A DNA stretch of 64,000 nt from Gemmatimonadales bacterium (GTDB lineage: Bacteria > Gemmatimonadota > Gemmatimonadetes > Gemmatimonadales > GWC2-71-9), in contig JBBCJC010000002.1 in assembly GCA_037189525.1 (NCBI GenBank), positions 125,908 through 189,907 of the forward strand, given 5' to 3'. The notes beneath the pieces were generated by a model that saw only the letters and a program-made list of their open reading frames with translations, had not been told where the DNA came from and made no database searches. Made by a program: the position numbers and the translations under genes. The first letter of the stretch is position 1. Each line of letters begins with the position of its first letter. Below are positions 38,135-53,761 of this stretch, piece by piece.

Positions 38135-38623
38135 ATGACGATCGCGCGGAAGGCCAGGATCTTCTGGCCGGTTTTCCTGCTGCTGTTCCTGGCCGATTGT
38201 ACCACCAAGGACCTGGCCGAAACCCACCTGGCATGGTCGGTCCCGGAATCGGTCATCGGCGACTTTTTCCGCCTGACCCTGGGCTACAACCCTGGCGCCG
38301 CTCTGGGCATCTCTATCGGAGAGCACTCCCGGATCTTCTTCAGCCTGACCGCGGCCATCATCGTGATTGCGTTGACCCACATCTATCGCCGAGCCGAGCC
38401 GAAAAGCACCATCGTGGGGTTATCGGTGGGCCTGCTGATCGGCGGCGCCCTGGGCAATCTCTACGATCGGCTGCGCTCGCCACGCGGGGTCGTCGACTTC
38501 ATCGATATCGGGGTCGGTGACGTGCGATTCTGGACCTTCAACGTCGCGGACATCGGCATCTGTATCGGGGGCGTCCTGCTGGCTTGGCACCTGTCCACCA
38601 TGCCCGAATCGAAACCGACATGA
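38135..38623 (+). CDS. lspA: Signal peptidase II (lipoprotein signal peptidase)
   Basis: LADCTTKDLA...LGYNPGAALGI...GGALGNLYDRL...VVDFID...FNVADIGI. Confidence 0.9.
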   Translation: MTIARKARIFWPVFLLLFLADCTTKDLAETHLAWSVPESVIGDFFRLTLGYNPGAALGISIGEHSRIFFSLTAAIIVIALTHIYRRAEPKSTIVGLSVGLLIGGALGNLYDRLRSPRGVVDFIDIGVGDVRFWTFNVADIGICIGGVLLAWHLSTMPESKPT

Positions 38624-39234
38624 TGAGAATCAACATCACACTGATTGCCGCGGCCCTGTTTGGGATGGCCCCGGCGCTGACGGCCCAGAGCAATCCCGAG
38701 CCGGGCAAGCTCTCCATGGCGGGCGTGATGCGCGGCAGCGCCATGGTCGATTCGGTCTTCGTCGACCGCACCCTTCCCGCCGGGAAGATCGAAGGGGGCG
38801 ACTGGGCCTCCTATCTGCTCGCCCGCCTGGGCGCCGGGCCGATGCCCGATGGCCTCGGCATCATCGTCAACGTGGACACGAGCCATATCGATGTCCGGGG
38901 CCGGTTACAGGATCTGCCGCTCGAGGCGCGTGCCCTCCTCGGCCCCATTGCGACCATGGTCGACTCGAGCACCATGATCTCGGCCGCCGTCCTGATGCAG
39001 CGGACCGGTCCCGAAGTGCTCCGCTTCTGGCTCAGGAGCATCACCGTCAACGGCATGGCGCTCCCGGAATTCATCCTGGGGCAGATGATGGCCTCGGTAG
39101 GTCGGCAGTATCCCGCCCTGACCAGGACCGGACGCGATCTCTACATCCAGGTTCCGCGGGACGGCATCGTCCGCCTGGGCTCCCGGGCGGTCCATCTCGG
39201 CATCGACCCCACGCCGCCGGCCCCGTCGCCCTGA
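38620..39234 (+). CDS. Hypothetical secreted protein
   Basis: MMRINITLIAAALFGMAPALTAQ signal peptide. The start overlaps the lspA stop (ATGATGA). No recognised domain. Confidence 0.65.
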   Translation: MMRINITLIAAALFGMAPALTAQSNPEPGKLSMAGVMRGSAMVDSVFVDRTLPAGKIEGGDWASYLLARLGAGPMPDGLGIIVNVDTSHIDVRGRLQDLPLEARALLGPIATMVDSSTMISAAVLMQRTGPEVLRFWLRSITVNGMALPEFILGQMMASVGRQYPALTRTGRDLYIQVPRDGIVRLGSRAVHLGIDPTPPAPSP

Positions 39235-39341
39235 CGGAAACGTCCCCTCCGCGCCCGACGCGGCCCTCACTCGGCCGGCCTCTGCTCCTGGCCGGCATCG
39301 CGGGCACACTGGCCGGCCCGCTCCTCCCGCATGTCGTCGAG

Positions 39342-40049
39342 GTGGAGCGCCTCCGCCAGGTGGGCATTGCGTGGCTGGGCGTCACGATCCTCACCACGAC
39401 CGCCGTGATCGGCCTGCTCTATCGCCGGCTGGGCGTCGCGGGGCTCGCGTTGGGAGTCGGCACGCTGGCCGTCGGCTTTGCCATTCTCGGCGGAGACTGG
39501 TCCGGATCGCTGGGCACCCGGCTCCCCTGTCGCCACAACTGGCGCATCGCCGATGCGTACCTGCCGCGGGCCAGCCCGCTCCGTTCGATCACCTTCGACC
39601 TGGGAGCCACCCGCGTCAAAATCTGCTACGGCGCCCCGGCCACGCGCGGCAAACGGCGCCTGGGTAGTCCGGACATCCCGTACGGCCACCTCTGGCGTAC
39701 CGGCGCCAACGAGCCGACCACGATTCGGAGCAGCGGGCCGATTGCCATTGCGGGCATTCCGGTAACCCAGGGCAATGTCTCCCTCTATACCGTCCCCGGT
39801 CCGGAAACCTGGGAAATCGTCGTCAACCGGGCGACCAAGCAGTGGGGCCGGGAAGAGGACTACACCGAGGCGATTGCCCGGCAGGAAGTCGGCCGGACCA
39901 TCGTCCCGGCAGCCGCCCTGCCGGAGCCCCAGGAGCGGCTCGCCTTCGCGTTCGAAAACGCCGATGACGGCTCAGACTCGGGAACCCTGATTCTCCGCTG
40001 GGAAAGCACCGAAGTTCGACTTCCGATCCGATCGGACGCCACCCCGTAG
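39342..40049 (+). CDS. DUF2911 domain protein with hydrophobic N-terminal region
   Basis: The C-terminal two-thirds matches the DUF2911 pattern (KICYGAPATRG...PYGHLWRTGANEPTTI...GNVSLYTVPG...WEIVVN). There is no in-frame ATG. The start is guessed at GTG 39342, with GTG 39360 as an alternative. The 5' part of the 510-aa ORF is not considered coding. Confidence 0.65.
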   Translation: MERLRQVGIAWLGVTILTTTAVIGLLYRRLGVAGLALGVGTLAVGFAILGGDWSGSLGTRLPCRHNWRIADAYLPRASPLRSITFDLGATRVKICYGAPATRGKRRLGSPDIPYGHLWRTGANEPTTIRSSGPIAIAGIPVTQGNVSLYTVPGPETWEIVVNRATKQWGREEDYTEAIARQEVGRTIVPAAALPEPQERLAFAFENADDGSDSGTLILRWESTEVRLPIRSDATP

Positions 40050-40380
40050 GGACCCGCCGCGCCCCGAAAAGGGCCGCAAAATCCAATACCGACGAGCAAG
40101 CTACCAAAACCCGGATCGAGGCCAATCCTGCCGGCTGGACCTCTTTTCATGTTTATCGCCGTGTACTAATGGTACAGCTCGTAGTCGATATGGGGGCGAC
40201 AATGACACTATATCAGTCACGACAACTCGTTGATAATGAATGAGATGGATAACAAACAGCCAACGACTACAGCTTGGGAGTAGTCCCAAGGCATACTGTA
40301 TGACTATTGCACTATCAAATTGACATAACTCTGACCTCACAACCCAGGCAATCACGGCGGCCGGAAAACAAGCCCGACTT

Positions 40381-43005
40381 ATGCACCAACGGGCAGGGCT
40401 AGCAGCCATACGTCCGTCAGGGATCGATTGCGCCATGGCCCAGGACAGTTCCAATTCGACTCGTGAATCGCGGCCCACGACGCCGCCGCGTTCGCGCATC
40501 CGGTCGCCGGGCCGCCCGAAGCTGACCAGCCTCCGGGCGCGCGTCACGCTGGGCGCCGTGATCGGAGCGCTGGTCCTCGCGGCCGCCGGCACCCTGGTGG
40601 TACTGCGGGCTGCTGGGGCCGTCCGCTCTCTCGAACGGACCCGGTACATCGGTCTTGCGACCGACGCCCGCAATCGCCTCGATCAACTGGAAGGCCGGGA
40701 TCGCACCCGGCTGATGGAGATTGCCTTTTCGGACGGGCTCTATGCCCTGGCCGAGAAGGGGCCGGCACCGTCGGACTCATTTATCCGGCCGACCTTTGCC
40801 GACCGTTTTCTGACCCAACACGGCGACCCCTATCTCGGGATCTATGACCCGAGTGGGAAGCGCATCTTTGCCGCAGACCGCTCGGCCGGCGGCGACCTGG
40901 CCCAGATCGCCGGGAGCAATGTCTTCTTCCGGATGCTGGACAACCGGTCGCCGGAGATCGGCCTGATCCGGCAGGGCAACCGGCTCTATTGGATCGGCGG
41001 GGCGCCGATCCTTCCCACGACCTATACGGATGCGAGCCGCCCGATTCGTGGCTACCTGGTCGTGGTTCGCCCGTTCGACCCGGCCACACTGACCTCGGGC
41101 GCCGATCGGACCGGCACGCCAACCGTCGAGCCGCTGACACCCACGCGTCCCGCCTTTCAACCCCGGGTCGACACCGACGGACGCGACAGCGCCCGGATCC
41201 AGTTTGCCCTGACCGACATCTTTGCGCAGCAGACGAGCCTGGCCACCGTAACGGCCAGCCGCGCCGACTATCTCGCCGCCGAGCGGCGAGTGGCTTTTGC
41301 CGCGGCGTTAGGCCTGATCCTGATCCTCCTGGCCGTGGCGGCCGCATGGGTCGCGATCATGCGGTGGCTGGTCACGCCCGCCGCGTCGCTGGCTCGGAGC
41401 GTCGGCGGCCACGCCGGAGGCTCGCCCGGTTCCCTGATTACCGCGCCGTCGAACGCCGCCGAGTGGCGACTGGTCACCGGCGCCGTCAATCGCGTCATCT
41501 CACAGCATCGCGCCGGCCTCGAGCGATTCGACCGGCTGACGCGCGCGGGCCGAGACGGCCTCTGGGAGCGCGACCTCACCTCCGGCGAGTGGACTACCAC
41601 CGCCCGATTCCACGAACTGCTCGGCTATCAGGACGGCGACATCGTATCGCCGCTGACGGCGCTGACGAACCGACTCCATCCAGACGATGCGGGTCCGATC
41701 CTGGCCTGGCTGGCCGCGGAACGGCCGACGCCCGCGACGTGGGCCAGCGATGCCCGAGCCCGCCGTGGTCCGCAGGAGTGGTTCCCGGTGCGCATCGAAG
41801 CGACCGTGAGCGCCAATGCCGTGACCGGCCGCCTGATCGACCTGACCGGGCAGCGCGCCGCCGAACTGGCCATTGCCGATGCGGAAGCCCGGAGCGAACA
41901 GCGCCAGGAAAGCCTGGGCCACCTGCTGCAGGGTGTCGCTGCCCAGCTGCCGTCCGGGACGCAGACCCTGGCCATCCGCCATCGGCTCGAGCTGGTGGGC
42001 GCTGGGCTCAACGGGAGCCTCAAAGGCACCGCGGCGCCGTTCGACTTCTACACCTTCCTGCAGGAGACGGCGCAGAGCCTGAATGCGGAGCTGGCGGTGG
42101 CGCCCGGCGTACCCGACTGGGTCGAAGGCGATCGCAGCCTGCTCCGGACCGCCCTCGACTGCCTCGCGACCGATACCAGTGGCGGACGCCTTTCGCTGCG
42201 GGTGGAACTCGAGGACCGCCGCACGCCGGACCGGATCCTCTTTACGCTCGAATGCCGAGGCACCGCCTTTACCGACGCGCGGACCAGCGCGATCCGAAGC
42301 ACGCTCGAGACCGGCGAGCCGGGTTTTCCCGAGCCGTTCCTCGAGTGGCGCGCCGCGCATCACATTGCCCGAGCACTCGGCGGAACGGCCGTCTTCGACA
42401 ACGATGGCCCCGATTCTCGGCGGCGGCTCGCACTGCCGCTGGCCGCGGCGAGCAACCCGTTTGTCGGCGCGGTGCCTGATGCCGACTGGGACACCGCCGC
42501 GCCGGCCGACGCCACCTTCGGCGTGGAAGCCCCCGAGCCGGTCGTCGCGGCAAGCGCAGGCCCAGCAAGCGCTCCGGTGGAACTGGTGGCCGACGCAACG
42601 GTCACGATCAACCTCGATGACGGACCGACGGCGCGCCCCGGTTCCGACGCTCCTGCGGAGCCGGCGATCGATTCGGCGACTCTGGAACAGATCTCCGCGT
42701 CGCTCACGAGCGGATCGGGGCTGGGCAGCCAGCTGATCACGCTGTTCCGGACCGAGGCGCCGGGTCGAGTCGAGGCCATCGAAGAGGCGGCCGGCACCGG
42801 CGACTGGGCCGCGCTCCGGATGCGCGCCAACGACCTCAAGGGTATGTGCGCCCTGATCGGGGCGAGCCCGCTCGCGGCACGCTGTGTCGCGCTGGCGAAC
42901 ACCACCGGCCCGGCCGCGCACGATGCCGCGCGCGCCGTTCGGACGGAATGGGAACGAGTCGAAGTGTTACTGGACGGACTGGCCGGCGCCCAAGCTGGCG
43001 CCTAA
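40381..43005 (+). CDS. Membrane sensor protein: 2 TM + periplasmic domain, PAS-like, degenerate kinase-core-like region, His-less HPt-like C-terminus
   Basis: TM helices at about aa 55-76 and 305-331. The periplasmic segment of about 230 aa looks CHASE-type by eye. PAS-like region (GLWERDL...RLHPDDAG). C-terminal ...RMRANDLKGMCALIGA... follows the HPt pattern. ATG 40435 is an alternative start. Confidence 0.8.
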   Translation: MHQRAGLAAIRPSGIDCAMAQDSSNSTRESRPTTPPRSRIRSPGRPKLTSLRARVTLGAVIGALVLAAAGTLVVLRAAGAVRSLERTRYIGLATDARNRLDQLEGRDRTRLMEIAFSDGLYALAEKGPAPSDSFIRPTFADRFLTQHGDPYLGIYDPSGKRIFAADRSAGGDLAQIAGSNVFFRMLDNRSPEIGLIRQGNRLYWIGGAPILPTTYTDASRPIRGYLVVVRPFDPATLTSGADRTGTPTVEPLTPTRPAFQPRVDTDGRDSARIQFALTDIFAQQTSLATVTASRADYLAAERRVAFAAALGLILILLAVAAAWVAIMRWLVTPAASLARSVGGHAGGSPGSLITAPSNAAEWRLVTGAVNRVISQHRAGLERFDRLTRAGRDGLWERDLTSGEWTTTARFHELLGYQDGDIVSPLTALTNRLHPDDAGPILAWLAAERPTPATWASDARARRGPQEWFPVRIEATVSANAVTGRLIDLTGQRAAELAIADAEARSEQRQESLGHLLQGVAAQLPSGTQTLAIRHRLELVGAGLNGSLKGTAAPFDFYTFLQETAQSLNAELAVAPGVPDWVEGDRSLLRTALDCLATDTSGGRLSLRVELEDRRTPDRILFTLECRGTAFTDARTSAIRSTLETGEPGFPEPFLEWRAAHHIARALGGTAVFDNDGPDSRRRLALPLAAASNPFVGAVPDADWDTAAPADATFGVEAPEPVVAASAGPASAPVELVADATVTINLDDGPTARPGSDAPAEPAIDSATLEQISASLTSGSGLGSQLITLFRTEAPGRVEAIEEAAGTGDWAALRMRANDLKGMCALIGASPLAARCVALANTTGPAAHDAARAVRTEWERVEVLLDGLAGAQAGA

Positions 43006-43017
43006 CGGAGTGAGTCA

Positions 43018-46000
43018 ATGAGCCTCTACGAGCACGAGACGCAACCATCGGACCTTCAGGGGAACGACACGCTGTCACTTCCCGAGATGAGCGAATATCT
43101 GCTCGCCATGCGACACGAACTGCGAGCGCCGCTCAACGCCATCATCGGCATGTCGGCCCTGCTGCTCGACGATGATGTCACGCTCCGCCAGGCGCAGTAC
43201 GTCAAGAGCGTCCACGCGGCCGGCGAGAGCCTGTCCGTCATCCTGAACGACGTGCTCGACCTCGCCAGTGTCGCGGCCAACCGGCTGGCCATCGAACCGA
43301 TTCCGTTCGACCTCAAGTCGATGATCGAAGAGACGGCCAGCGCGCTGGCGCCGAAGGCCAACGAGCGCGGCCTGGCGTTGCGGGTCGACTGGCGTCCGGA
43401 GCTGCCCCGCTACCTGGTGGGCGACCCGGGCCGGACCCGACAGGTCATCGGCAACCTGGTCGGTTACGCCGTCAACGGCACCACCCACGGTGAGGTCGTC
43501 ATCCGCGTCACGCCGGACGGCGAGCGGAGCGGCATCCCGGCGATCCGGTTCTCGGTGGAGGACACCGGCATCGGCATTGCCCCGAATCGCTTGGCGCGCA
43601 TCTTCGACGAGTATGTGCCGCTCGACGCGTCGCCCTACCGCTCGTTCGGCGTCACCGGCCTCGGACTTCGTCTTTCGGCCGAATTGGTTCGGCTGATGAA
43701 CGGGGTGATCCACGCCGAGAGCGAGCCGGGCCGCGGCAACCGCCTCTGGTTTTCGATTCCGATGCCCACGGCGGCACAGTACGAAACCGGCGTCGGCACG
43801 GAGCCGGCTCTGACGGGAGGCGGCCGCGCCCTGATCGTCGAAGCTGACTTCTCCAACCGCTCCCGCTTCGCGCAGCAGTTCCAGGACGCCGGCTGGCGGG
43901 TCGAGTTCACCGACGACATCGACTCGGTCGGTGCGCAACTCCGGCAGGCCATTACCGAGGGCGACCCGTATCGGACCTGCATCATCTCGCACTATGCGGT
44001 CCGGCCGATCCACATGGAACTCGCGCGCGACCTCAAGGCCGATAGCCTGCTCGCGCCGGTGGCGCTGGTGATGGTCACGGCCGTTGGCAGCCCGGGCGAT
44101 GGACAGAAACTCTGGAGCGCGGGTTTCGCCGCCTATCTGCGGAAGCCGGTGCCGGCAGAAGAGATTCGCGAGTCGCTGGAGGCTTTATCGCGCTTGGGGC
44201 CGACCGGAAAGGGCAACTCCCTGATTACCCGCCACTCGCTGGCGGAAATCCGGAATGCGCAATCGTTCGAGGTCGAGGGCATCGATGAGATGCTCGCGAG
44301 CCTGACCGCCCCGGAGGAATCGACCACCGCATCGTCCGCAGCTACCGCGCCGAGCGATGTCTCCGCGCAGCTGGACGACGCGGCAATCCAGGCGTCGGCT
44401 GCGGAGCCGACTGCCGAATTCACTGCCGAGCCGGTCGAGTCTTCGAACGAAGCGGGCAACGAGGCGAGTGAGGTCAGTGCCGACGCCAATGCGTCCACAT
44501 CGCTGCCGCCGGCGCTCGGCGCCCTGCTGGCGCTTCCGGTGCCTGAAGTCCAGGAAGAGCAGCCCTTGGCGGTCGACGTGACCGCCGTCGAATCTGATGC
44601 TTCTGAGGCGCTGCCCGACGCGGCCACGTCCAAAGCCAGCCTCTCTGTACCCGAAGCCCTCGATGCGGACTCGAGCACAGAGGCCCTCGTCGAATCGGCA
44701 ACGAGTCTGTCGGCCGCGCCCGAAGTCGAGTTCGAGATCGAGGCCGAAGCGGAGCCTGCCCGGCAATCGGAGCCGCTCCTGCTCGCGGCACCCCAGGATG
44801 TATCGCAGGACGTACCGAGCGAGCCGGCAGCCCTGTTCGGACCAGCCGTCCCACCGATCGTCGAGTCGAGCGCATCCGCGCCGACGCTCTTCCACGCTGA
44901 GCTCGATATCCTTGCTCCGCCCGCGATTGCGCCGACTCCGGAACCTGTCGAAGCGGCAGTGGTAGCGCCGGACACCAGCGCGGCCGAGGCTACGATCGCA
45001 ATCGAGATCAGTGCCAATGTCAGTGAGGATGCCGTTGTGGCCTCCTCGGAGATCACCGGTGTCGACGCGGACATCACGATCGAAGCCACCATTGCCGAGC
45101 AAGACTCGACCGGCGAAGCCGCGATCGATGAACCGACAGCGCAGCTTCCGGCTTCACTGATCGACGGGCACCAGGATGCGCTCTGGGAATCCGAACCGAT
45201 CGTCCCGACGCTCGAGGGGCTGGTGACCCAGGCGGACGAGGCGATCGACGCTCCGAGCGCGGTGATCGAGTCGGTCACCCTGACCTCGCCCGGAGACTAC
45301 CTGGTCGACCATCCGTCGGAGCCCGTCGCGATCGAATCCGCAGCTGCCGAGCCCGCACCGGCCATCGATCAGATTGCGGCAGCTGAGCAAACGGAGATCG
45401 AGCAAGCAGAGATCGAACAAGCGCCGGTCGAAGTTGCCTCGCTGATCGAGCAGTCTGTGAGTATCGAGTCCTCGGATGCCATCGACGCGACGGTCACGGT
45501 GGAACCCACCTCACTAGTCGAGTCCGAATCGGCCGTCGACGCGGATACCTTCTTGGCCATCGAGCACGGCGCAACCGAGACCATCGAATCGACTGAAACC
45601 GTCGTCGAGACGCCCGACGCGCCGATCGAGTCGATCCTCGACAGCAACGATACCGACGGCTTTGCCGCCACAACCTCCGAGCCTGCGGACGCAGACCCGG
45701 ACCTCGAACCGGAACAGGACATCGACGTCTCGACGTTCGACGTCGTGAGTCCGCAGCTGCTCGATCAGCTCTCCACCGGCGGCGGCTTCTTCACCCAGCA
45801 CGTGGTCACCACGTTCCTGCGGGATGGAGGCGCCCAAGTCGAGCATCTCGCCACGGCGCGCGACGCGCAGCTGGCGGAATCGCTCGACAAGCTGGCCCAT
45901 GCGGCCGAGTGGGTTGGCGCGGCACGACTGTCGGCCCTGGTTGCCGATGCTGCGGCTCGCTTCGAGCGGACCGGACGGGTCAGCCCGACCGCACGGATCG

Positions 46001-46413
46001 CGGCCGCGCTGGCCGAGGCACGCACTACTCTCGATTTCGCGAGTCCGCAGGGCCTTCCGGCCGAGCTGCCCGCCATCGGGGCGACCTTTGCCGAGCAGTT
46101 GTCGCCGTCGCAGGAAGGGTCGGGCCGTCTGCTGGCCGTCACGCTGGCAAACAGCTTCGTGTCGGAAGCCCCGGTCCGTGCATCCGAGCTGCGCGATGCC
46201 GTCGCGCAGGGCAACACCGATGCAGCCCAGCGGCTGGCTCAGACGCTCAAGGGCATGTGCGGCCTGATCGGCGCCGAGCCGCTTGCCAAGCTGGCGGCAC
46301 TCGTCGAGGCGGATGCCCGTCTCAAGCGGCTCGGCCAGACCGAGCGCTATCTGACACACATCGACCTCGAGCTGGAACGAGTTCGTGCCTTTCTCGATCA
46401 GGCCCGCGCCTAG
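43018..46413 (+). CDS. Soluble hybrid histidine kinase: HisKA-HATPase_c, pseudo-receiver, ~485-aa acidic low-complexity region, two HPt-like domains
   Basis: H box LAMRHELRAPLNAIIG (His33), G1 EDTGIGI, F IFDEY, G2 GVTGLGL. REC-like region at aa 270-390. C-terminal RLAQTLKGMCGLIGA. GGAG lies 7 nt before the ATG, and the gene starts 12 nt after the upstream stop. Confidence 0.9.
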   Translation: MSLYEHETQPSDLQGNDTLSLPEMSEYLLAMRHELRAPLNAIIGMSALLLDDDVTLRQAQYVKSVHAAGESLSVILNDVLDLASVAANRLAIEPIPFDLKSMIEETASALAPKANERGLALRVDWRPELPRYLVGDPGRTRQVIGNLVGYAVNGTTHGEVVIRVTPDGERSGIPAIRFSVEDTGIGIAPNRLARIFDEYVPLDASPYRSFGVTGLGLRLSAELVRLMNGVIHAESEPGRGNRLWFSIPMPTAAQYETGVGTEPALTGGGRALIVEADFSNRSRFAQQFQDAGWRVEFTDDIDSVGAQLRQAITEGDPYRTCIISHYAVRPIHMELARDLKADSLLAPVALVMVTAVGSPGDGQKLWSAGFAAYLRKPVPAEEIRESLEALSRLGPTGKGNSLITRHSLAEIRNAQSFEVEGIDEMLASLTAPEESTTASSAATAPSDVSAQLDDAAIQASAAEPTAEFTAEPVESSNEAGNEASEVSADANASTSLPPALGALLALPVPEVQEEQPLAVDVTAVESDASEALPDAATSKASLSVPEALDADSSTEALVESATSLSAAPEVEFEIEAEAEPARQSEPLLLAAPQDVSQDVPSEPAALFGPAVPPIVESSASAPTLFHAELDILAPPAIAPTPEPVEAAVVAPDTSAAEATIAIEISANVSEDAVVASSEITGVDADITIEATIAEQDSTGEAAIDEPTAQLPASLIDGHQDALWESEPIVPTLEGLVTQADEAIDAPSAVIESVTLTSPGDYLVDHPSEPVAIESAAAEPAPAIDQIAAAEQTEIEQAEIEQAPVEVASLIEQSVSIESSDAIDATVTVEPTSLVESESAVDADTFLAIEHGATETIESTETVVETPDAPIESILDSNDTDGFAATTSEPADADPDLEPEQDIDVSTFDVVSPQLLDQLSTGGGFFTQHVVTTFLRDGGAQVEHLATARDAQLAESLDKLAHAAEWVGAARLSALVADAAARFERTGRVSPTARIAAALAEARTTLDFASPQGLPAELPAIGATFAEQLSPSQEGSGRLLAVTLANSFVSEAPVRASELRDAVAQGNTDAAQRLAQTLKGMCGLIGAEPLAKLAALVEADARLKRLGQTERYLTHIDLELERVRAFLDQARA

Positions 46414-46523
46414 TCTGCCTGCTTTCGCGCCTCGGGCTTCGGAACCGATTTCCGGAGCCTGAGGCGCGCGCGTTGGGCCGGGGCTGGCCGCCCGGAATCC
46501 CTCGACAATACCTTTAGACATCC

Positions 46524-47366
46524 ATGCTGCCCGAGGGGGCCCGCGTGTACCGATCCTCCAACTTCGACTTTTCCGATCAACGGATCCCGGCCCGGTACGA
46601 CGAGCGTCTCGTCCCGGTGCTGTTCGCGCCGTGGGGTGAAGGGTTGGTTGGTCATGCCAAGCCGTCGCTGGGGATTCGGGCGTTGGACGTCGCGACCGGA
46701 CCTGGTACGGTCGCACGGATCCTGGCCCGGAAGATCGGAGCGAAGGGGATGGTCGCGGGGTGTGACGCGTCACCGGCCATGATCACACGGGCGCAGTCCA
46801 AACCCGAGCGCACCGAGTACGCGCCGACGGCCTATACGGTCTGTCCGGCGGCGCCGCTGCCCTATCCGGATGCGGCCTTTGACCTGGTCACCTGCCAGCA
46901 GGGGCTCCAGTTTTTCCCCGACGGCGCCAGTGCACTGTCCGAGATGCGGCGGACCCTGGTGCGGGGAGGACGGCTGGCGGCGAGCGTGTGGTGCCAACCG
47001 GAGGACTGCACCATTTTCTTTGCCTATCAGCAGGCGCTGCGTCGTGCCGGACAATCGGAGCTGGCCGACCTGATGCGCATTCCGTTTCCGCACTGGACCG
47101 CCGAAGACATCCGCGCCCGTGTTGCCGCCAGCGGCTTTTCCTCCGTCCAGGTGGGCGACGAAACGCGGGACCTCGTTTTCGACGGCGGCTTGCAGCAGGC
47201 CCTGGCCGCCTTTGCGGCCACACCGATCGGCCCGGCCGTCGATGCCCTTCCCGATACCGACCGGGCCGCCATTGCCGATGCCGCTCGCCACACCTTTGCG
47301 CCCTGGACCGTCGACGGCGTGATTCGCGGCCCGATGCGGTCGTGGATCATCCTGGCCACGACCTGA
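46524..47366 (+). CDS. Class I SAM-dependent methyltransferase
   Basis: Motif I LDVATGPGTVA, followed by GCDASPAMI and FDLVTCQQGLQFF. Confidence 0.85.
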   Translation: MLPEGARVYRSSNFDFSDQRIPARYDERLVPVLFAPWGEGLVGHAKPSLGIRALDVATGPGTVARILARKIGAKGMVAGCDASPAMITRAQSKPERTEYAPTAYTVCPAAPLPYPDAAFDLVTCQQGLQFFPDGASALSEMRRTLVRGGRLAASVWCQPEDCTIFFAYQQALRRAGQSELADLMRIPFPHWTAEDIRARVAASGFSSVQVGDETRDLVFDGGLQQALAAFAATPIGPAVDALPDTDRAAIADAARHTFAPWTVDGVIRGPMRSWIILATT

Positions 47367-47367
47367 C

Positions 47368-47922
47368 ATGCTCCGTCGCATTGCCGTCATCGCCGGCCAG
47401 GCGGAATTGGTCAGTCCCGACGAGATCGCGGCCGCCCTGCAGGTCGGACGCCTCCTGGGCGAGAACGCCGTAACGCTGGTCTTCGATAGCGCAGCAACCG
47501 GCATGATCGAAACCGTGGCCGACACCGCCATCCAGAGCGGCGGGCGCCTGCTGGGCATTCGGCTCGACGGCCAGACCGCGGGGCGATCCGACCTGGCGGA
47601 GGACCGCATCGCGGCCTCGCGCGGCGAATGGTGCGAGGAGGTCGGCCGGCTGTCCGATGCGTTCCTGGGTCTTCCGGGGGGATTCGCGTCGCTGGGCGAA
47701 GCGTTTGCCATTTGGGACTGGGGCGGCGGCAGTATCGATCGTCCATTGGGACTGCTCGATCAGGGCGGGTACTACAGCACGCTGCTCAAGGAAGGATCCG
47801 ACGATGTGGTCGACCGCTTCGTCATCGAATCTCAGCGCGGACAGCTGATCGTCGGCACGAGCGCGGCCGAACTGCTGCGTCGCCTGGCCGACTACCGGGC
47901 GCCCGAAGGCCGGCGGGAGTAG
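47368..47922 (+). CDS. LOG/TIGR00730-family Rossmann-fold protein (divergent motifs)
   Basis: LPGGFASLGEAFAIWDW resembles the PGGxGTxxE motif. The expected GGGxxGLMG position reads DSAATGMIE. The start is 1 nt after the methyltransferase stop. Confidence 0.6.
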   Translation: MLRRIAVIAGQAELVSPDEIAAALQVGRLLGENAVTLVFDSAATGMIETVADTAIQSGGRLLGIRLDGQTAGRSDLAEDRIAASRGEWCEEVGRLSDAFLGLPGGFASLGEAFAIWDWGGGSIDRPLGLLDQGGYYSTLLKEGSDDVVDRFVIESQRGQLIVGTSAAELLRRLADYRAPEGRRE

Positions 47923-48509: not shown

Positions 48510-50849
48510 CTACTCCCCGTCCGGAGCAGCCGATCGGGCCCACGGTTCGGTCGGCTGCACTATCTCATAGTCGACCGGCGGCGTGACACCCATCAGGTGC
48601 TGGACGAAGTAGTCCCAGCGCCGGCGAACGACATACGGCTCGTTGAGTCCGTGCGCCCGGTTGGGCAGCACCAGGAAGTCGAAGGTCTTGTTGGCCTTGA
48701 TGAGCAGATCAGCCACCTGGAGCGTCATCGCGGGATGCACGTTGTCGTCCATGTCACCGGTCATCAGGAACAGCTTGCCCTTCAGATTCTTGGCATACGC
48801 TCCCGTAGCCGACGACGCAAAGTTGTCGGTCTTCCTGACCGTGTCACGAACCATCTGGCCCTGATACTTCTCGGCCCAATAGATGTTGTAGCTCCGATTA
48901 TCGTGGTTGCCGGCAGTCGAGACGGCCACCTTGAAGAAATCGGGGAAGCGGAGAATCGCATCGGTCGAGGCAAAACCGCCGCCCGAGTGTCCGAAGATGC
49001 CGACGCGATCGACATCGAGCCCCGGATAACGAGCAGCCAACTGCTTGACCGCTTCGATCTGGTCCGGCAAGCCGTTGTCGATGAAGTTGGCGTAGTAGTT
49101 GTCGTGGAACGCCTTGGAGCGCAACGGCGTGCCCATCGCATCGAGCTGGATGACCACAAAGCCGAGCTGGGCCAGTGCAAACGCCTCGGCGCCCGACCGG
49201 AAGTTCCAGGCGCGCACGCTGCCGATCTGCGGTCCCGGATAGATCTCGACGATGATCGGGTAGCTCCCGGTGCTGTCGAACGCCGGCGGGAAGAAAATCA
49301 GGCCGTTGAGATCGGTGACGCCGTCACGCGCCTTGGTCGTGAAGACCTGGGCCGGCCGCCACCCCACTTCGCGGAGCCGCGACACGTCGGCCGTTTCGAG
49401 CGTCCGAATGATTCGTCCGTCCACCGCGGACCGCAGTACCGTCACGGTCGGCGTTTCGATCCGCGAGTAGCTATCGATGAAATACCGGCCGCTCGGCGCG
49501 AACTGGACCTCGTGCGTGGCATCTTCCGGCGTCAGCAGGGTCAGCCCGGAGCCGTCGAAGTTGACCCGGTACAGCTTGGCATAGTACCAGAAGTGGCCGG
49601 CCTCACGACCACGCGCCGTGAAGTAGATCTGCTTGGCCGTCTCGTCGACATGCTGAATGGCGCTTGCAAACCAGGCGCCTTCGGTCAGCCGGTTGCGGAT
49701 CGAGCCGTCCGGCGCCAGGCGATAGAAATGCGCCCAGCCGTCCCGCTCCGACCACCAGAACGTGTCCTGTCCGTCGCGCGTGACGTACCAGGTCTGCGGC
49801 TCGTTAGGCGGAGCCAGCTCGACGTAGGTCTTGGAGCTGTCGGCCGCGCGGAGACGGACCGTGCCGGTGGCGGCATCGACCTCGTGGAGCGTGGCCCGCT
49901 GCGAGCCGCGACCCAGAGCGCTGACGTACACCTTATCGCTGCCGTCGCTCCAGACCGAGTCGCGCGCCGATCCGCTGAGCGTGATCTGCACCGGCTGCGG
50001 AGCGATGCGAACTTCCCGGTTGGACTTGCTGGCAACATCGATGATGTGCAAGGTCGGCACCGGGATGATCGAGTCGCCCGGCAACGCATACGGCTGGCTG
50101 TAGTGCTTGGGCCGCTGGTGCGTCATCGAGATGTAGTGCATGTGCGCCACCTGGCGCTCGTCCTGGCGGCTCACCACCAGCTTCTTCGAGTCGGGCGACC
50201 AGCGGATCATCGGCGCCCGCGGCTGGGGCCGGACCACCTGGTTGGGACGCGGCGCGGTGAGCCCATAGCCCCAGTGCTCGACCCCGTCGGTCGTCAGCTG
50301 GGTCGAATCTTTGCCGCCCCGCGAACGAACCCAGACGTTGTGCCCGGAGATGAAGGCTTCCTGGCGCTTGTCCGGCGACAGGATATACGGCACCTCACTC
50401 GGCAGCGTGTCGGACACTGCGCAGCGATAGGCCACGATGTCGCAGACGAAGCGCTTCCGGTTGGCGTTGAATTCGATTTCCCGCTCGTTCTGGCCATCGT
50501 TGGTAAACCGGAACCGGGCAAACGGCAGCCGGGCAGGATCATAGGCCGAGTCGCGCGCGACACTCATCGCGGCTGCCAGCTTTGCGGTCTCGAACACCAG
50601 CCCGCGGGTGTTTCGCACCGGATCGACCAGGACGAACTCGGCGCCGGCCGCCGTCTTGTTGCGGTACCAGAACCGATTGCCATCCGGATACCACTCGGCC
50701 CGAACCGAGTCGCCCGTGACCAGCCGGGCCGTGTGCCAGGGGAGGAGCCGTTCGGCTCGGGCATAGTCGACCTGGGCCAGGAGGGGCGCGGTCGAGCCTA
50801 ACGAGAGCGGAAGCGCCAGCAGCAGGGCGCGCACCGTTCGAGGTGTCAT
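48510..50849 (-). CDS. S9B family peptidase (dipeptidyl-peptidase IV-like)
   Basis: Signal peptide MTPRTVRALLLALPLSLGSTAPLLAQ. DPP-IV-type N-terminal propeller. GHSGGGF nucleophile elbow. Confidence 0.9.
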   Translation of the reverse strand: MTPRTVRALLLALPLSLGSTAPLLAQVDYARAERLLPWHTARLVTGDSVRAEWYPDGNRFWYRNKTAAGAEFVLVDPVRNTRGLVFETAKLAAAMSVARDSAYDPARLPFARFRFTNDGQNEREIEFNANRKRFVCDIVAYRCAVSDTLPSEVPYILSPDKRQEAFISGHNVWVRSRGGKDSTQLTTDGVEHWGYGLTAPRPNQVVRPQPRAPMIRWSPDSKKLVVSRQDERQVAHMHYISMTHQRPKHYSQPYALPGDSIIPVPTLHIIDVASKSNREVRIAPQPVQITLSGSARDSVWSDGSDKVYVSALGRGSQRATLHEVDAATGTVRLRAADSSKTYVELAPPNEPQTWYVTRDGQDTFWWSERDGWAHFYRLAPDGSIRNRLTEGAWFASAIQHVDETAKQIYFTARGREAGHFWYYAKLYRVNFDGSGLTLLTPEDATHEVQFAPSGRYFIDSYSRIETPTVTVLRSAVDGRIIRTLETADVSRLREVGWRPAQVFTTKARDGVTDLNGLIFFPPAFDSTGSYPIIVEIYPGPQIGSVRAWNFRSGAEAFALAQLGFVVIQLDAMGTPLRSKAFHDNYYANFIDNGLPDQIEAVKQLAARYPGLDVDRVGIFGHSGGGFASTDAILRFPDFFKVAVSTAGNHDNRSYNIYWAEKYQGQMVRDTVRKTDNFASSATGAYAKNLKGKLFLMTGDMDDNVHPAMTLQVADLLIKANKTFDFLVLPNRAHGLNEPYVVRRRWDYFVQHLMGVTPPVDYEIVQPTEPWARSAAPDGE

Positions 50850-51037
50850 GGAAGCTTCCCGTACGCAGATGGGGTGTGTTGTGGCGAACCCTGGCAATTT
50901 CTCCACCCCGCGCGCCTGCCGCCAGCCCCGGGAAACTGCCGGGACTTGACTTCCCGGCTCGCGGGCCCATTGTGCGGAGATTCGGACGGACGCCACTCGA
51001 GGCCCCGTCACGCCATGACCCGGACCCAGGGCCACCC

Positions 51038-53761
51038 GTGCGCCGTCGCTTCGCGTTTTCGATCGTCCTTCTCGTCCTCATCCTCGCCATTTCGATTCCG
51101 GGGCTGAGCAGCGTCCTCATCGACTGGTGGTGGTTCCGCGAAATCGGTTTCGCGATTGTCTTTACCCGCCAGCTGGCGACCAAGATCGCCCTGTTCTTTG
51201 GCGTGGGCGTCGCCACGTTCGGCCTGGTCTATCTCAACCTCCGGATGGCCCAGCGCGGCATCGTGCCGGACCCGATCGTCTTCCAGTTTCAGCCGGCCAG
51301 CCAGCGGGTCGACCTCACCGGCATGCTGCGCCGGATGAGCTTCCCGGTGGCGCTCGCGCTGGGCCTCTTGACCGGCCTCGGCGCGACGCCGGCGTGGAGC
51401 CTGATCCTGCAGGCCATCCACGGTACCCCGTTCGGCATCACCGACCCGGTCTTCGGTCGGGACATCGGGTTCTACGTCTTCTCGCTGCCGGCGTGGTCGG
51501 TCGCGCTCGGGCTCCTGACCAGCATACTGACCCTGACCCTGCTGCTGATCACGCCGATCTACTGGCTCCGCGGCGACATCATCCTGCGTCCTCGTCAGCT
51601 GCGGATCGAGCCGTCGGCCGGCCTGCATCTGGGCATGCTGATCGCCGCCAACCTGCTGCTCGCGGCGGCGCGACACTGGATCATCGACGCCTCCGGCCTG
51701 CTCTATTCCACTACCGGACCGCTGGTCGGCGCCAGCTACACCGATCTCAATGCCACTCTGCCCGCCATTCGGGTGAGTTCGGTCGTAGCCCTGATCGCCG
51801 CGGCGGGTGTCCTCTTCGGCGCGGCGCGCGGCAAGCTGGCGTGGTATGGTCTCTGGTCCGTCGGCAGCTACCTGATCGTGTCGTTCGTGGGCAAGAGCCT
51901 GGCGCCCTGGGCCATGCAGAAGTTCATCGTGGCGCCCACCGAATTGACCAAGGAAGCGCCGCAACTCGTCTCGCACATCGCAGCCACGCGGCACGCATGG
52001 GGTCTCGACAGCGTCGAGATCCGCGACCTGGACGGCGAATCCGAACTGACCCAGGAAACCATCCGGGCCAACGCGGCAACCATCGAGAACGTCCGGCTCT
52101 GGGACGGTGAGCCCTTGCTCCGCACGCTGGGGCAGCTCCAGGAAATCCGCACCTACTACGACTTCGTTTCGGTCGACGACGATCGCTACTGGATCGACGG
52201 CAAGTATCGCCAGGTCCTGCTGGCGCCGCGCGAACTCAATCCCGGCGCGCTGCCGACTCGGACCTTCATCAACGAGCACCTGACCTTCACCCACGGCATG
52301 GGGCTCACCATGAGCCCGGTCAACCAGGTCACCACCCAGGGCCTGCCGGTGCTGTTCATTCAGGATCTGCCGCCCCGGTCGACGGTGTCGCTCGAGATTG
52401 CCCGGCCGCAGATCTACTACGGCGAGATGGCGGATCGCTACGTCTTCGTCAACACCCTGCAGCGGGAGTTCGATCATCCGGCCGGCGAGACCAACATATA
52501 CCGTTCCTACACGGGTACCGGCGGGATTCCGATCGGCAGCTCGCTTCGACGGCTGCTCTTCTCGATCCATTACGGCTCGACCAAGATCCTCCTTTCCGGC
52601 GACATCAGTAACGAGAGCAAGATCCTCTATCGTCGCAACATCGTCGAACGGGGACGCGAAGCACTTCCCTTCCTGAGTTTCGATCGCGATCCCTATCTGG
52701 TGATCGGCACCGATGGCACGCTCAAGTGGGTCCTCGATGCGTACACCACCTCGGATCGGTATCCGTACGCGGCGCGCTTCGGACAAACCAGCACCAACTA
52801 CATGCGCAACAGCGTCAAGGTGGTGATCGACGCCTATGACGGTTCGGTCGGCGCTTACGTCAGCGACCCGAACGATCCGATCATCACCACCTGGGGCGCC
52901 ATCCTGCCGGGCATTTTCCGTCCGCTCGACCAGCTGCCGGCCGGACTGGAAGCCCATTTGCGCTACCCGGACGATCTCTACCGGGCCCAGACCGCGCTGT
53001 ACACGACGTATCACATGACCGAGCCGGAGGAGTTCTACCACCGCGAAGACCAGTGGCAGATTCCCGTCGTCGCCAAGAGCGACGGATCGGTGCCGTTCAT
53101 GCGCCGGATCGTGATGCGCCTGCCCGAGGAAACCGCGGCGGAGTTCATCTACATGGTGCCGTTCACCCCTCGCGGCAAGGACAACCTGGCCGCCTGGATG
53201 GTGGCGCGCAGCGACGGCGAGGACTACGGCAAGCTGCGCGTCTATCGGCTGCCCCGCCAAAGCCTGGTCTTCGGTCCGCAGCAGATCGAGAACCGGATCA
53301 ATCAGGATACCGAGATTGCCCGGCAGGTGTCGCTTTGGGATCAGCGGGGCACCCGCGTCATTCGCGGCGACCTGCTGGTCATCCCGATCGAGGAAGCGTT
53401 GCTCTACGTCCAGCCGCTGTATCTCCAAGCGGAGGGCGGCCGGATTCCGGAACTCAAGCGAGTGGTCGTGGCGTATCGCAATCAGGTCGTGATGGAGGAG
53501 ACGCTCGAAGCCGGCCTGGCCGTGCTGTTCGGCGGCGGCACCGGTCCGGCTCGACCCACGACGGCAACGGCCGACCAGCCGGCCGCATCCACCGGCACCC
53601 CCTCGAGCGCGGTCCAGCAGCTCTCGGCCGAGGCGCGCCGGCGCTACCAGGCGGCACTCGATGCCCAGCGAGCGGGCGACTGGAGCCGCTATGGCGAGGA
53701 AATCCGGCGTCTCGGTGAACTGCTCGAGCAGCTCGCCGCGGCATCCGCTCCTCGGGAGTAA
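51038..53761 (+). CDS. UPF0182 family large membrane protein
   Basis: Seven or so N-terminal TM helices, beginning VRRRFAFSIVLLVLILA...LIDWWWFREIGF. Large C-terminal domain. GTG start at 51038, since upstream ORF sequence overlaps the divergent DPP-IV gene. Confidence 0.8.
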   Translation: MRRRFAFSIVLLVLILAISIPGLSSVLIDWWWFREIGFAIVFTRQLATKIALFFGVGVATFGLVYLNLRMAQRGIVPDPIVFQFQPASQRVDLTGMLRRMSFPVALALGLLTGLGATPAWSLILQAIHGTPFGITDPVFGRDIGFYVFSLPAWSVALGLLTSILTLTLLLITPIYWLRGDIILRPRQLRIEPSAGLHLGMLIAANLLLAAARHWIIDASGLLYSTTGPLVGASYTDLNATLPAIRVSSVVALIAAAGVLFGAARGKLAWYGLWSVGSYLIVSFVGKSLAPWAMQKFIVAPTELTKEAPQLVSHIAATRHAWGLDSVEIRDLDGESELTQETIRANAATIENVRLWDGEPLLRTLGQLQEIRTYYDFVSVDDDRYWIDGKYRQVLLAPRELNPGALPTRTFINEHLTFTHGMGLTMSPVNQVTTQGLPVLFIQDLPPRSTVSLEIARPQIYYGEMADRYVFVNTLQREFDHPAGETNIYRSYTGTGGIPIGSSLRRLLFSIHYGSTKILLSGDISNESKILYRRNIVERGREALPFLSFDRDPYLVIGTDGTLKWVLDAYTTSDRYPYAARFGQTSTNYMRNSVKVVIDAYDGSVGAYVSDPNDPIITTWGAILPGIFRPLDQLPAGLEAHLRYPDDLYRAQTALYTTYHMTEPEEFYHREDQWQIPVVAKSDGSVPFMRRIVMRLPEETAAEFIYMVPFTPRGKDNLAAWMVARSDGEDYGKLRVYRLPRQSLVFGPQQIENRINQDTEIARQVSLWDQRGTRVIRGDLLVIPIEEALLYVQPLYLQAEGGRIPELKRVVVAYRNQVVMEETLEAGLAVLFGGGTGPARPTTATADQPAASTGTPSSAVQQLSAEARRRYQAALDAQRAGDWSRYGEEIRRLGELLEQLAAASAPRE

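Follow-up and report, generated by a model that had tools for sequence, protein, structure and literature searches.

A CHASE4 pseudo-histidine kinase and its soluble partner: a conserved, apparently eroded phosphorelay gene pair of Gemmatimonadota

Two adjacent genes, here called gene 1 and gene 2, lie at positions 40,381 to 46,413 of a 64,000-nucleotide stretch of DNA from a Gemmatimonadales bacterium (hereafter the window; GenBank assembly GCA_037189525.1, contig JBBCJC010000002.1, positions 125,908 to 189,907), whose G+C content is 64–69 % throughout. A first-pass annotation had described them as a membrane sensor with a degenerate kinase core, followed by a soluble hybrid kinase with apparently competent catalysis. 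Given the residue losses in the core and the receiver of gene 2 and in the three Hpt domains of the pair, both products read as pseudo- or atypical phosphorelay proteins, a description that fits the sequences better than that of a sensor and a competent kinase. Of the earlier view, the non-classical module on two polypeptides remains, as a conserved pair of separate genes with a sensor gene, while its division into a sensor and a competent kinase does not.

The layout of the pair is as follows.

40381..43005, + strand: gene 1, open reading frame (ORF) of 874 amino acids (aa); CHASE4-transmembrane-PAS pseudo-histidine kinase with a C-terminal pseudo-Hpt domain
43003-43005, + strand: TAA stop codon of gene 1, read directly from the sequence
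43007-43010, + strand: GGAG, Shine-Dalgarno-like, 7 nt 5' of the gene 2 ATG (43018)
43018..46413, + strand: gene 2, ORF of 1131 aa; soluble protein composed of DHp, CA, a pseudo-receiver (pseudoREC), an acidic intrinsically disordered region and two Hpt domains without the phospho-His

Direct reading of the sequence agreed with the first-pass annotation on both ORFs, on the 12-nt spacer between the TAA and the ATG and on the position of the GGAG. The length of 874 aa given for gene 1 is correct for the ORF. It is probably not that of the protein, since the aligned homologues begin at its Met18 (MAQD…, at 40432), so that the true start is probably 40432 and the product has 857 aa. The earlier description had included neither the C-terminal Hpt domain of gene 1, nor the receiver fold and the two Hpt domains of gene 2, nor the loss of the N-box Asn in gene 2.

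Gene 2 keeps a kinase fold but has lost residues for phosphotransfer

The domains of gene 2 were delimited by Pfam and by an AlphaFold2 (AF2) model built from 35 orthologues, in which the DHp spans residues 24-86 and the CA residues 95-248. Pfam marks two Hpt stretches in the protein. Model confidence is given as the predicted local distance difference test (pLDDT).

43087..43275, + strand: DHp/HisKA domain (aa 24-86); Pfam HisKA (25-85), E 8.5e-13
43300..43767, + strand: CA/HATPase_c domain (aa 95-250); Pfam HATPase_c (135-250), E 3.8e-20, 72.8 bits
43825..44190, + strand: pseudo-receiver (aa 270-391); (βα)5 fold in AF2
44302..45702, + strand: polyacidic disordered linker (aa 429-895) of ~470 residues; AF2 pLDDT ~30
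45751..46041, + strand: Hpt-like domain 1, Hpt1 (aa 912-1008); AF2 helical bundle, pLDDT >90; hhalign probability against Hpt2 99.2 %
46081..46407, + strand: Hpt-like domain 2, Hpt2 (aa 1022-1130); Pfam Hpt, E 2.2e-13; AF2 pLDDT >90

No segment of gene 2 exceeded the hydropathy threshold for a transmembrane helix, as the first-pass annotation had stated. Its reading of an H box with His33 and of G1, F and G2 boxes was also correct. His33 (43114-43116) lies within RHELRAPLN, with Glu34 present and Ala at H+4, and the G1 (VEDTGIGI), F (IFDEYV) and G2 (GVTGLGL) boxes are intact. In the orthologues, D182, T183, G184, G214, L215 and G216 of the G1 and G2 boxes are invariant, and one subclade lacks the second Gly of G1. 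The invariance of these motifs and of Asp182 suggests that gene 2 still binds a nucleotide, which might serve as a regulatory ligand.

The N box, however, reads NLVGYAVNGT and carries Tyr150 (43465-43467) where the Mg-binding Asn is expected. Tyr150 lies opposite the Asn of the NLVGNAIKFT-type boxes of GacS (7z8n), ShkA (6qrj), 7p8e, ETR1 (4pl9) and HK853 (4jas). In GHKL ATPases, the N-box Asn coordinates the Mg of Mg-ATP and is required for ATP-Mg binding; the N347D mutant of EnvZ is reportedly kinase-negative. As compared to a canonical HisKA kinase, gene 2 therefore has the H-box His and the G1, F and G2 boxes but not the N-box Asn. We counted the residues at four positions in 51 orthologues and in the 71 nearest kinases outside the family (outgroups).

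N-box Asn (position 150): orthologues His 43, Tyr 7, Gln 1; outgroups Asn 71/71
N-box Lys (position 153): orthologues Asn 45, Ser 4, Gly 1, His 1; outgroups Lys 71/71
H+4: orthologues Ala 49, Thr 2 (P0063 and P0074); outgroups Thr or Asn 71/71
His33: orthologues His 40, and Pro, Ala, Gln, Asn or Arg in 11; outgroups His 71/71

The 11 orthologues without His33 belong to several clades, and their adjacent ELRAPLN is unaltered. Apparently competent catalysis is thus not what these positions indicate, given Tyr150 in place of the N-box Asn, Asn in place of the N-box Lys, Ala at H+4 and the loss of His33 in 11 of the 51.

The domain that follows the core is a receiver only in fold. Its Pfam Response_reg match (272-387) scores 18.4 bits, below the cut-off of 30.2, and His325 (43990-43992, SHYAVRP) occupies the position of the phospho-Asp; in the orthologues, this column holds His in 26, Asp in 24 and Asn in one. 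The domain aligns to the pseudo-REC (596-750) of P0193, a single-chain relative described below, and not to its true REC (768-879). A live phospho-Asp at position 325 is therefore doubtful even in the orthologues that bear Asp, and the earlier term "hybrid" kinase does not fit, the receiver being a pseudo-receiver that matches the P0193 pseudo-REC. From the same equivalence, the place of the ancestral true receiver is, by alignment, taken by the acidic linker. Residues 426-925 comprise 105 Asp and Glu against 2 Lys and Arg, and the orthologous linkers, mostly 200-616 aa long, keep the acidic composition but not the sequence.

Neither Hpt-like domain of gene 2 has a conserved phospho-His. In Hpt1, column 961 holds Arg 19, Ala 13, Thr 7, His 4 and Gln 4. 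His961 occurs only in the clade of the window, lies 0 to 4 residues off the expected site depending on the alignment and lacks the Lys/Gly context; BLASTP to P0193 sets H961 against the His, and hhalign K958. In Hpt2, Gln1075 (46240-46242), within LAQTLKGMCGLIGA (AQTLKG), lies opposite the phospho-His of 7c1i. The column is Gln in 43, Pro in six and Arg in one, and never His, while the outgroup kinases in which an Hpt motif was found (n=26) have AH.LKG. Gene 2 thus lacks two features of an unorthodox hybrid kinase, the receiver Asp and the C-terminal Hpt His. Together with that of gene 1, described below, the pair has three Hpt domains, none of them with a conserved phospho-His. His33 is then the only canonical phospho-site remaining in the window copy, and the pair is predicted to contain no His-Asp-His relay.

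Gene 1 joins a CHASE4 sensor to a degenerate kinase core and a pseudo-Hpt domain

Gene 1 is a pseudo-histidine kinase with a real sensor. Its AF2 model, from 21 family members, has a mean pLDDT of 75.8, with the folded domains mostly at 80-94.

40537..40626, + strand: transmembrane helix 1 (aa 53-82); Kyte-Doolittle 19-residue window maximum 2.49; AF2 long helix from aa 51
40708..41118, + strand: CHASE4 domain, periplasmic (aa 110-246); Pfam PF05228, E 3e-10
41272..41385, + strand: transmembrane helix 2 (aa 298-335); hydropathy maximum 2.8; AF2 helix 295-341
41512..41874, + strand: PAS domain, cytoplasmic (aa 378-498); PDB 3mr0, E 3.9e-7; AF2 PAS fold 393-487
41845..42012, + strand: DHp-like hairpin (aa 489-544); AF2 helices 489-522 and 527-544; no conserved His
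42034..42465, + strand: degenerate CA, HATPase-like (aa 552-695); N, G1 and G2 boxes lost
42673..42999, + strand: pseudo-Hpt domain (aa 765-873); Pfam Hpt, E 5e-10; AF2 helical bundle, pLDDT ~90

The hydropathy profile places two transmembrane helices around a periplasmic domain, as first proposed; they enclose ~215 aa, with the CHASE4 domain between them. The CHASE4 match (40.8 bits against a gathering score of 26.2) is the best-conserved part of the gene 1 family, with the motifs LDNR, PIRGY and W..G.P.LP, and residues 118-293 form a mixed α/β fold in AF2. The one CHASE4 ligand known is iron, in IsmP of P. aeruginosa (PMC10904736). The PAS-like segment noted earlier is supported by the 3mr0 match and by the AF2 fold, and its PAS_3 score (21.4 bits) falls marginally below the Pfam cut-off.

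Beyond the PAS domain, the Pfam scan found neither HisKA nor HATPase_c, and nothing up to the Hpt domain. The similarity to a DHp/CA core that had been seen by eye is nevertheless real. Residues 541-695 of the family align to the CA profile of gene 2 with a probability of 98.7 % (E 3.5e-16, hhalign), residues 552-685 form a CA-like α/β domain in AF2, and Foldseek matched the model to WalK, the YF1 LOV-kinase, RetS, GacS, DivL, ShkA and HK853. Profile alignment gave the same reading of the lost boxes as the first-pass annotation: ALDCLATDTS at the N box, LECRGTAF at G1 and FLEWRAAHH at G2. The H-box His is likewise not conserved. His514 occurs only in the clade of the window (column 514: Arg 11, His 4, Glu 3, Ala 2, Thr 1), and the sole invariant His of the family, H660, lies outside the DHp hairpin. 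Gene 1 thus shares fold and homology with canonical HisKA kinases but has neither a conserved H-box His nor the N, G1 and G2 boxes. In P0152, a deep relative of gene 1, HATPase_c is still detectable (39.7 bits), with an N box HLAANAARV and a GLGL at G2, and the erosion of the kinase core in the gene 1 lineage is, as read from this homologue, therefore gradual.

In the C-terminal Hpt domain, the residue that aligns with the phospho-His of RcsD/YojN (1sr2) and of 7c1i is Asn817 (42829-42831, RANDLKGMC). Across the 21 family members, column 817 is Asn in six, Gly in five, Thr in three, Glu and Ala in two each, and Arg, Asp or Ser in one each; no member has His. The residues around it are highly conserved, D818, L819, G827, A828 and C835 being invariant and K820, G821, M822 and C823 nearly so. 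The long homologues of gene 1 possess an extra domain of ~110 residues that matches Hpt1 of gene 2 (97 %, E 9e-11, hhalign) and is deleted in the clade of the window.

The pseudo-Hpt domains also carry cysteines. In gene 1, Cys823 (42847-42849; 20/21) and Cys835 (42883-42885; 21/21) are 12 residues apart (KGMC…C). In Hpt2 of gene 2, the first Cys (Cys1081, 46258-46260) is present in 46/50 and the second, which is Ala in the window, in 24/50. This Cys pair hints at a possible disulfide, metal or redox site replacing the phospho-His chemistry.

The pair is conserved as a unit within Gemmatimonadota

The ~22 homologues of gene 1 all come from Gemmatimonadota, and homology places the window in Gemmatimonadales, near an uncultured Gemmatimonas metagenome-assembled genome. 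A profile search of 1.84 billion representatives returned only ~16 full-length clusters at 50 % identity, and its lower matches were to single domains, mostly PAS. We compared 22 loci of the pair, six from metagenomes and 16 from species-representative genomes, and no cultured strain is among their sources. The neighbourhood conservation that the first-pass annotation had proposed to check was found throughout: in 22/22 loci, an orthologue of gene 2 lies directly downstream of the gene 1 orthologue on the same strand, with a spacing of 12-21 nt or a small overlap. A stop codon separates the genes in every locus, and their relative frame varies, gene 2 being mostly in another frame. In genomes whose gene 1 has diverged to 33-45 % identity, residues 1-420 of gene 2 keep 62-68 %, which argues for strong purifying selection on gene 2, although catalytic residues are missing.

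In the window itself, the two genes share a frame, the start of gene 2 lying 2637 nt, a multiple of three, after that of gene 1. The TAA and four codons (RSES) separate them (43003-43020), and read-through would yield a fusion protein. Since the relatives differ in relative frame and always have the stop, the in-frame arrangement is probably a coincidence, and a broken fusion is excluded.

As reported earlier, no response regulator flanks the pair. None was detected by Pfam among the ten flanking ORFs, phmmer searches with CheY and OmpR as queries, run on every ORF of 90 aa or more in the 64-kb window, returned no CheY- or OmpR-like ORF, and in the related loci no response regulator adjoins the pair, nor do the neighbourhoods contain a consistent one.

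A single-chain relative retains the complete relay

The profile search also identified P0193 (1145 aa), which unites CHASE4, kinase, pseudoREC, REC and two Hpt domains in one chain. Its catalytic residues are intact, with SHEIRTP in HisKA and NLVGNALKFT in HATPase_c. An Asp-less receiver-like domain is followed by a true receiver (DLVFMDCQMPELDG), and both Hpt domains have the His (IAHTLRG and AAHLLKG). The sensor of P0193 is 28 % identical to that of gene 1 (E 4e-16), and its DHp-CA-pseudoreceiver part is 37 % identical to residues 7-416 of gene 2 over 411 aa (E 2e-62). P0193 is the last of three consecutive, overlapping hybrid kinase genes (assembly GCA_044229445.1, contig JBGASX010000013.1, locus L023, 817-9438), so that tandem duplication of such genes does occur. 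The three genes of this array are of the GAF, PAS and CHASE4 types, each with the order histidine kinase-REC-Hpt, and lie downstream of an HDOD/HD gene.

Between the two genes of the pair, a specific affinity is limited to the Hpt domains. The Hpt of gene 1 matches Hpt2 of gene 2 with a probability of 99.5 % (E 4e-23, hhalign; phmmer E 5e-8), and the two are mutual best matches, above canonical Hpt domains. Both carry the signature KGMC.LIGA, which is absent in P0193 and in most canonical Hpt domains. We also considered that the CA of gene 1 might be a recent copy of the CA of gene 2. By hidden Markov model (HMM) scores, the gene 1 CA reaches ~34 bits to the gene 2 cores and 38-42 bits to P0193, and the score to gene 2 being no higher than that to P0193, this origin was rejected. 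Taken at the level of sequence, the pair has the appearance of a phosphorelay that was duplicated or split and lost catalytic residues, yet stayed under strong selection.

A model of signalling by contact, and its alternatives

We propose, with about even confidence, that the pair is a heteromeric, Gemmatimonadota-specific module that arose from a CHASE4 unorthodox hybrid kinase, has since eroded and signals by contacts. The architecture, the residue losses, the homology to P0193, the strict pairing and the purifying selection are observed; a physical interaction of gene 1 with gene 2, the kind of ligand and the kind of output we only infer. The ancestor would have had the order CHASE4-transmembrane-DHp-CA-pseudoREC-REC-Hpt-Hpt, and duplication or splitting would have been followed by the loss of residues for phosphoryl transfer. 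In the present pair, a ligand would bind the periplasmic CHASE4 of gene 1, and the signal would pass through transmembrane helix 2 and the PAS domain to the catalytically dead DHp/CA and the Hpt bundle. The resulting change of shape would alter direct contacts with gene 2, the translationally coupled cytoplasmic partner. The two DHp regions might pair in a heterodimer, in the manner of RetS-GacS; instead or in addition, a pseudo-Hpt domain might dock on the pseudo-receiver and so re-use the ancestral Hpt-REC interface. Gene 2 would then regulate an unlinked partner by binding, with phosphotransfer from His33 no more than a dispensable addition in some lineages. Overall, the pair probably signals mainly through protein contacts.

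A bolder form of this proposal, which we regard as tentative and rather less likely than the module itself, is that a whole phosphorelay spread over two coupled genes has turned into a phosphorylation-independent allosteric machine, in which the ancestral Hpt-receiver and DHp-DHp interfaces would serve as permanent or ligand-switched contacts and the acidic arm, in place of the true receiver, as an output or a tether. If true, it would be the first bacterial system to give pseudo-Hpt domains a defined role.

Several observations weigh against signalling by contact alone. Gene 2 of the window keeps His33, an intact HE dipeptide and perfect G1, F and G2 boxes; it may therefore bind nucleotide and, by an unusual metal coordination, might even autophosphorylate to some extent. 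Position 150 is His in most relatives, and His could bind metal. About half of the gene 2 orthologues have Asp at position 325, and His961 in the Hpt1 of the window clade is close to the expected phospho-His site. Regulation of the output by binding is, moreover, a conjecture by analogy with RetS, DivL and AHP6.

The main rival takes gene 2 for a working, if atypical, histidine kinase controlled in trans by gene 1, which would autophosphorylate on His33 and pass the phosphoryl group to an unlinked orphan response regulator. For the window copy this is plausible, and we give it a minority share, well short of even. In its favour, the H box retains His33 and Glu34, little or no variation is seen in the G1, F and G2 boxes and at the adenine-binding Asp182, HATPase_c scores 72.8 bits, 40 of the 51 orthologues keep the His, and the pairing itself is conserved. 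Yet the Mg-ligand Asn is absent from all 51 orthologues, and so is the N-box Lys; His33 has been lost repeatedly, in several clades, from a motif that is otherwise kept; and all of these residues are retained in the 71 outgroups. Another use of His33 would dispense with ATP altogether. In ChpT and Spo0B, a DHp with His is combined with a CA without the Mg-binding Asn, and gene 2, which resembles this architecture and in the window keeps His33 and Glu34, might be a phosphotransferase or phosphatase that shuttles phosphoryl groups to, or removes them from, the regulators of other kinases. We consider this unlikely. The Thr or Asn at H+4 that is needed for HisKA phosphatase activity is Ala in 49/51 orthologues and present in all 71 outgroups, His33 is dispensable in 11/51, and a pure phosphotransferase would not need the invariant G1/G2 ATP lid.

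Two trivial explanations are far less probable still. The first-pass annotation had itself raised the possibility of a frameshift in a single gene, and the shared frame of the window ORFs, only TAA and four codons apart, would suit one ordinary hybrid kinase whose frame is broken by a sequencing error or by a stop codon that is read through. We regard such an artefact as practically ruled out: the stops and differing frames of the 22 loci speak against both a broken fusion and read-through, independent assemblies show the same split, and gene 1 ends with a complete Hpt while gene 2 starts with its own DHp. The loss of several catalytic residues from both proteins might also mark two functionless, pseudogenizing kinase genes, which is only marginally more credible. 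Dozens of genomes carry the two genes with uninterrupted frames (857-1271 aa), the gene 2 core maintains 62-68 % identity between lineages and has many non-catalytic residues that do not vary, synteny holds in 22/22 loci, and AF2 is confident for each folded domain. We thus favour the heteromeric module that signals by contacts.

Upstream region and neighbouring genes

The spacer 5' of gene 1 (40050-40431, ~330-380 nt) appears A+T-rich by eye against a background of ~66 % G+C, and the relatives have a gap of 330-390 nt between the DUF2911 gene and gene 1. This spacer is presumably the candidate promoter or regulatory region of the pair itself. A simple scan found no sigma-70-like site on its + strand, and a promoter and terminator scan of 39900-46700 gave nothing on the + strand above the shuffled expectation. 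Rfam (gathering threshold) and tRNA scans of the window gave no match.

The DUF2911 ORF (38517-40049, + strand) has 510 aa. Since the domain covers only its last ~150 residues and the orthologues have 202-264 aa, the GTG given as its start probably lies much too far 5', unless a small gene occupies the 5' part. Downstream of the pair, a UbiE-type methyltransferase gene (46524-47366, + strand) precedes a LOG/"Lysine_decarbox" gene with an SLOG fold (47368-47922, + strand). Like the window, every related locus examined has this LOG gene a few genes 3' of the pair. Given that the amidase, DUF2911 and nicotinamide mononucleotide (NMN) transporter genes near the pair are also syntenic, the proximity of the LOG gene may reflect no more than core-genome synteny, with no functional link to the CHASE4 sensor. 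A DPP-IV/S9 peptidase (48510-51035, - strand) and a UPF0182 family membrane protein (50843-53761, + strand; Pfam E 3.7e-264) further downstream are ordinary housekeeping genes, syntenic in the relatives.

Comparison with known systems

By domain order, gene 2 resembles the unorthodox kinases BarA/GacS, TorS and ArcB, to which it is clearly homologous, with P0193 as the nearest relative. Against NCBIfam, residues 25-390 of gene 2 score 211 bits for TorS (cut-off 676.5) and 207 bits for BarA (cut-off 890), both far below equivalog level. As compared to BarA, TorS and ArcB, the pair lacks the receiver Asp and the Hpt His, and its sensor and core are on two polypeptides. ShkA of Caulobacter (6qrj, a top match, E 1.2e-39) is, like gene 2, a soluble DHp-CA-pseudoreceiver protein; in ShkA, the pseudo-receiver acts as an input domain and binds cyclic di-GMP (PMC12632262). 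The N box of ShkA, however, is intact and its C-terminal receiver is a true one, whereas gene 2 has neither and carries in addition the acidic disordered region and two pseudo-Hpt domains.

Gene 1 shares its plan with RcsD (YojN): a periplasmic domain, transmembrane segments, a kinase-like core devoid of catalytic boxes and, at the C-terminus, an Hpt domain. The RcsD Hpt (1sr2) is among the PDB sequence matches of gene 1. RcsD is also paired with a separate protein of the kinase type, RcsC. The Hpt of RcsD, however, keeps the phospho-His and relays phosphate to RcsB, whereas gene 1 has Asn817 instead and lacks the Hpt His. In the pair, sensing falls to CHASE4 and PAS, the partner protein (gene 2) has neither a true receiver nor the N-box Asn, and no RcsB-like regulator is linked.

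The closest functional analogy for the pair may be found in RetS-GacS and DivL-CckA. In Pseudomonas, the kinase-like sensor RetS, together with LadS and PA1611, exemplifies the regulation of another kinase through DHp contacts rather than by ordinary phosphotransfer, and both proteins of the pair find some of their best sequence and fold matches in the cores of GacS (7z8n) and RetS (6dk7, 6dk8, 7n0e). The genes of RetS and GacS lie at separate loci, both products are membrane sensors, and GacS is a competent kinase with a working REC and Hpt; the genes of the pair, in contrast, are translationally coupled, only one of them has a sensor, and neither has the full catalytic set. DivL of Caulobacter has a kinase fold without the phospho-His and is an allosteric regulator of its partner kinase CckA (PMC12189002). 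DivL (4q20) is a sequence and fold match of the pair proteins; its CA still binds ATP and a Tyr occupies its His site, while CckA is fully active and feeds ChpT and CtrA. Unlike the pair, DivL-CckA has neither an Hpt or pseudo-Hpt domain nor such a pairing of genes.

For the Hpt domains, AHP6 of Arabidopsis offers a precedent: it has the Hpt fold with Asn in place of the phospho-His and acts by competition or binding, not by phosphotransfer. AHP6 is free-standing and eukaryotic, and is not a specific relative of the Hpt domains of the pair. Our literature search for Gemmatimonadota CHASE4 systems or for a function of bacterial pseudo-Hpt domains returned only work on plant pseudo-HPt proteins and general reviews, with no paper on this gene family and no functionally characterized bacterial Hpt without His. 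Among bacterial domains, 0.9 % of HisKA and 0.9 % of Hpt lack the His (PMC12632262). Since only 0.9 % of Hpt do, a two-gene unit with three of them plus a pseudo-kinase and a pseudo-receiver is unusual. Pseudo-histidine kinases and pseudo-receivers are recognized but poorly understood, and bacterial pseudo-Hpt domains are known only as this statistic of ~0.9 % (PMC12632262).

The pair is thereby a strongly conserved natural case in which to study two-component folds that signal without phosphotransfer, with the intact P0193 for comparison. Automatic labels such as "ATP-binding response regulator" or "Hpt domain protein" mask its residue losses. The relevance is mainly to specialists in two-component systems. 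Gemmatimonadota are common in soils, and their signalling is almost unstudied. Both proteins show the marks of the pseudo-histidine kinase class, namely a retained fold, missing catalytic residues and selection, the loss in gene 2 being partial. The pair is real, conserved and lineage-specific, and it extends the pseudo-histidine kinase theme of RcsD, RetS and DivL.

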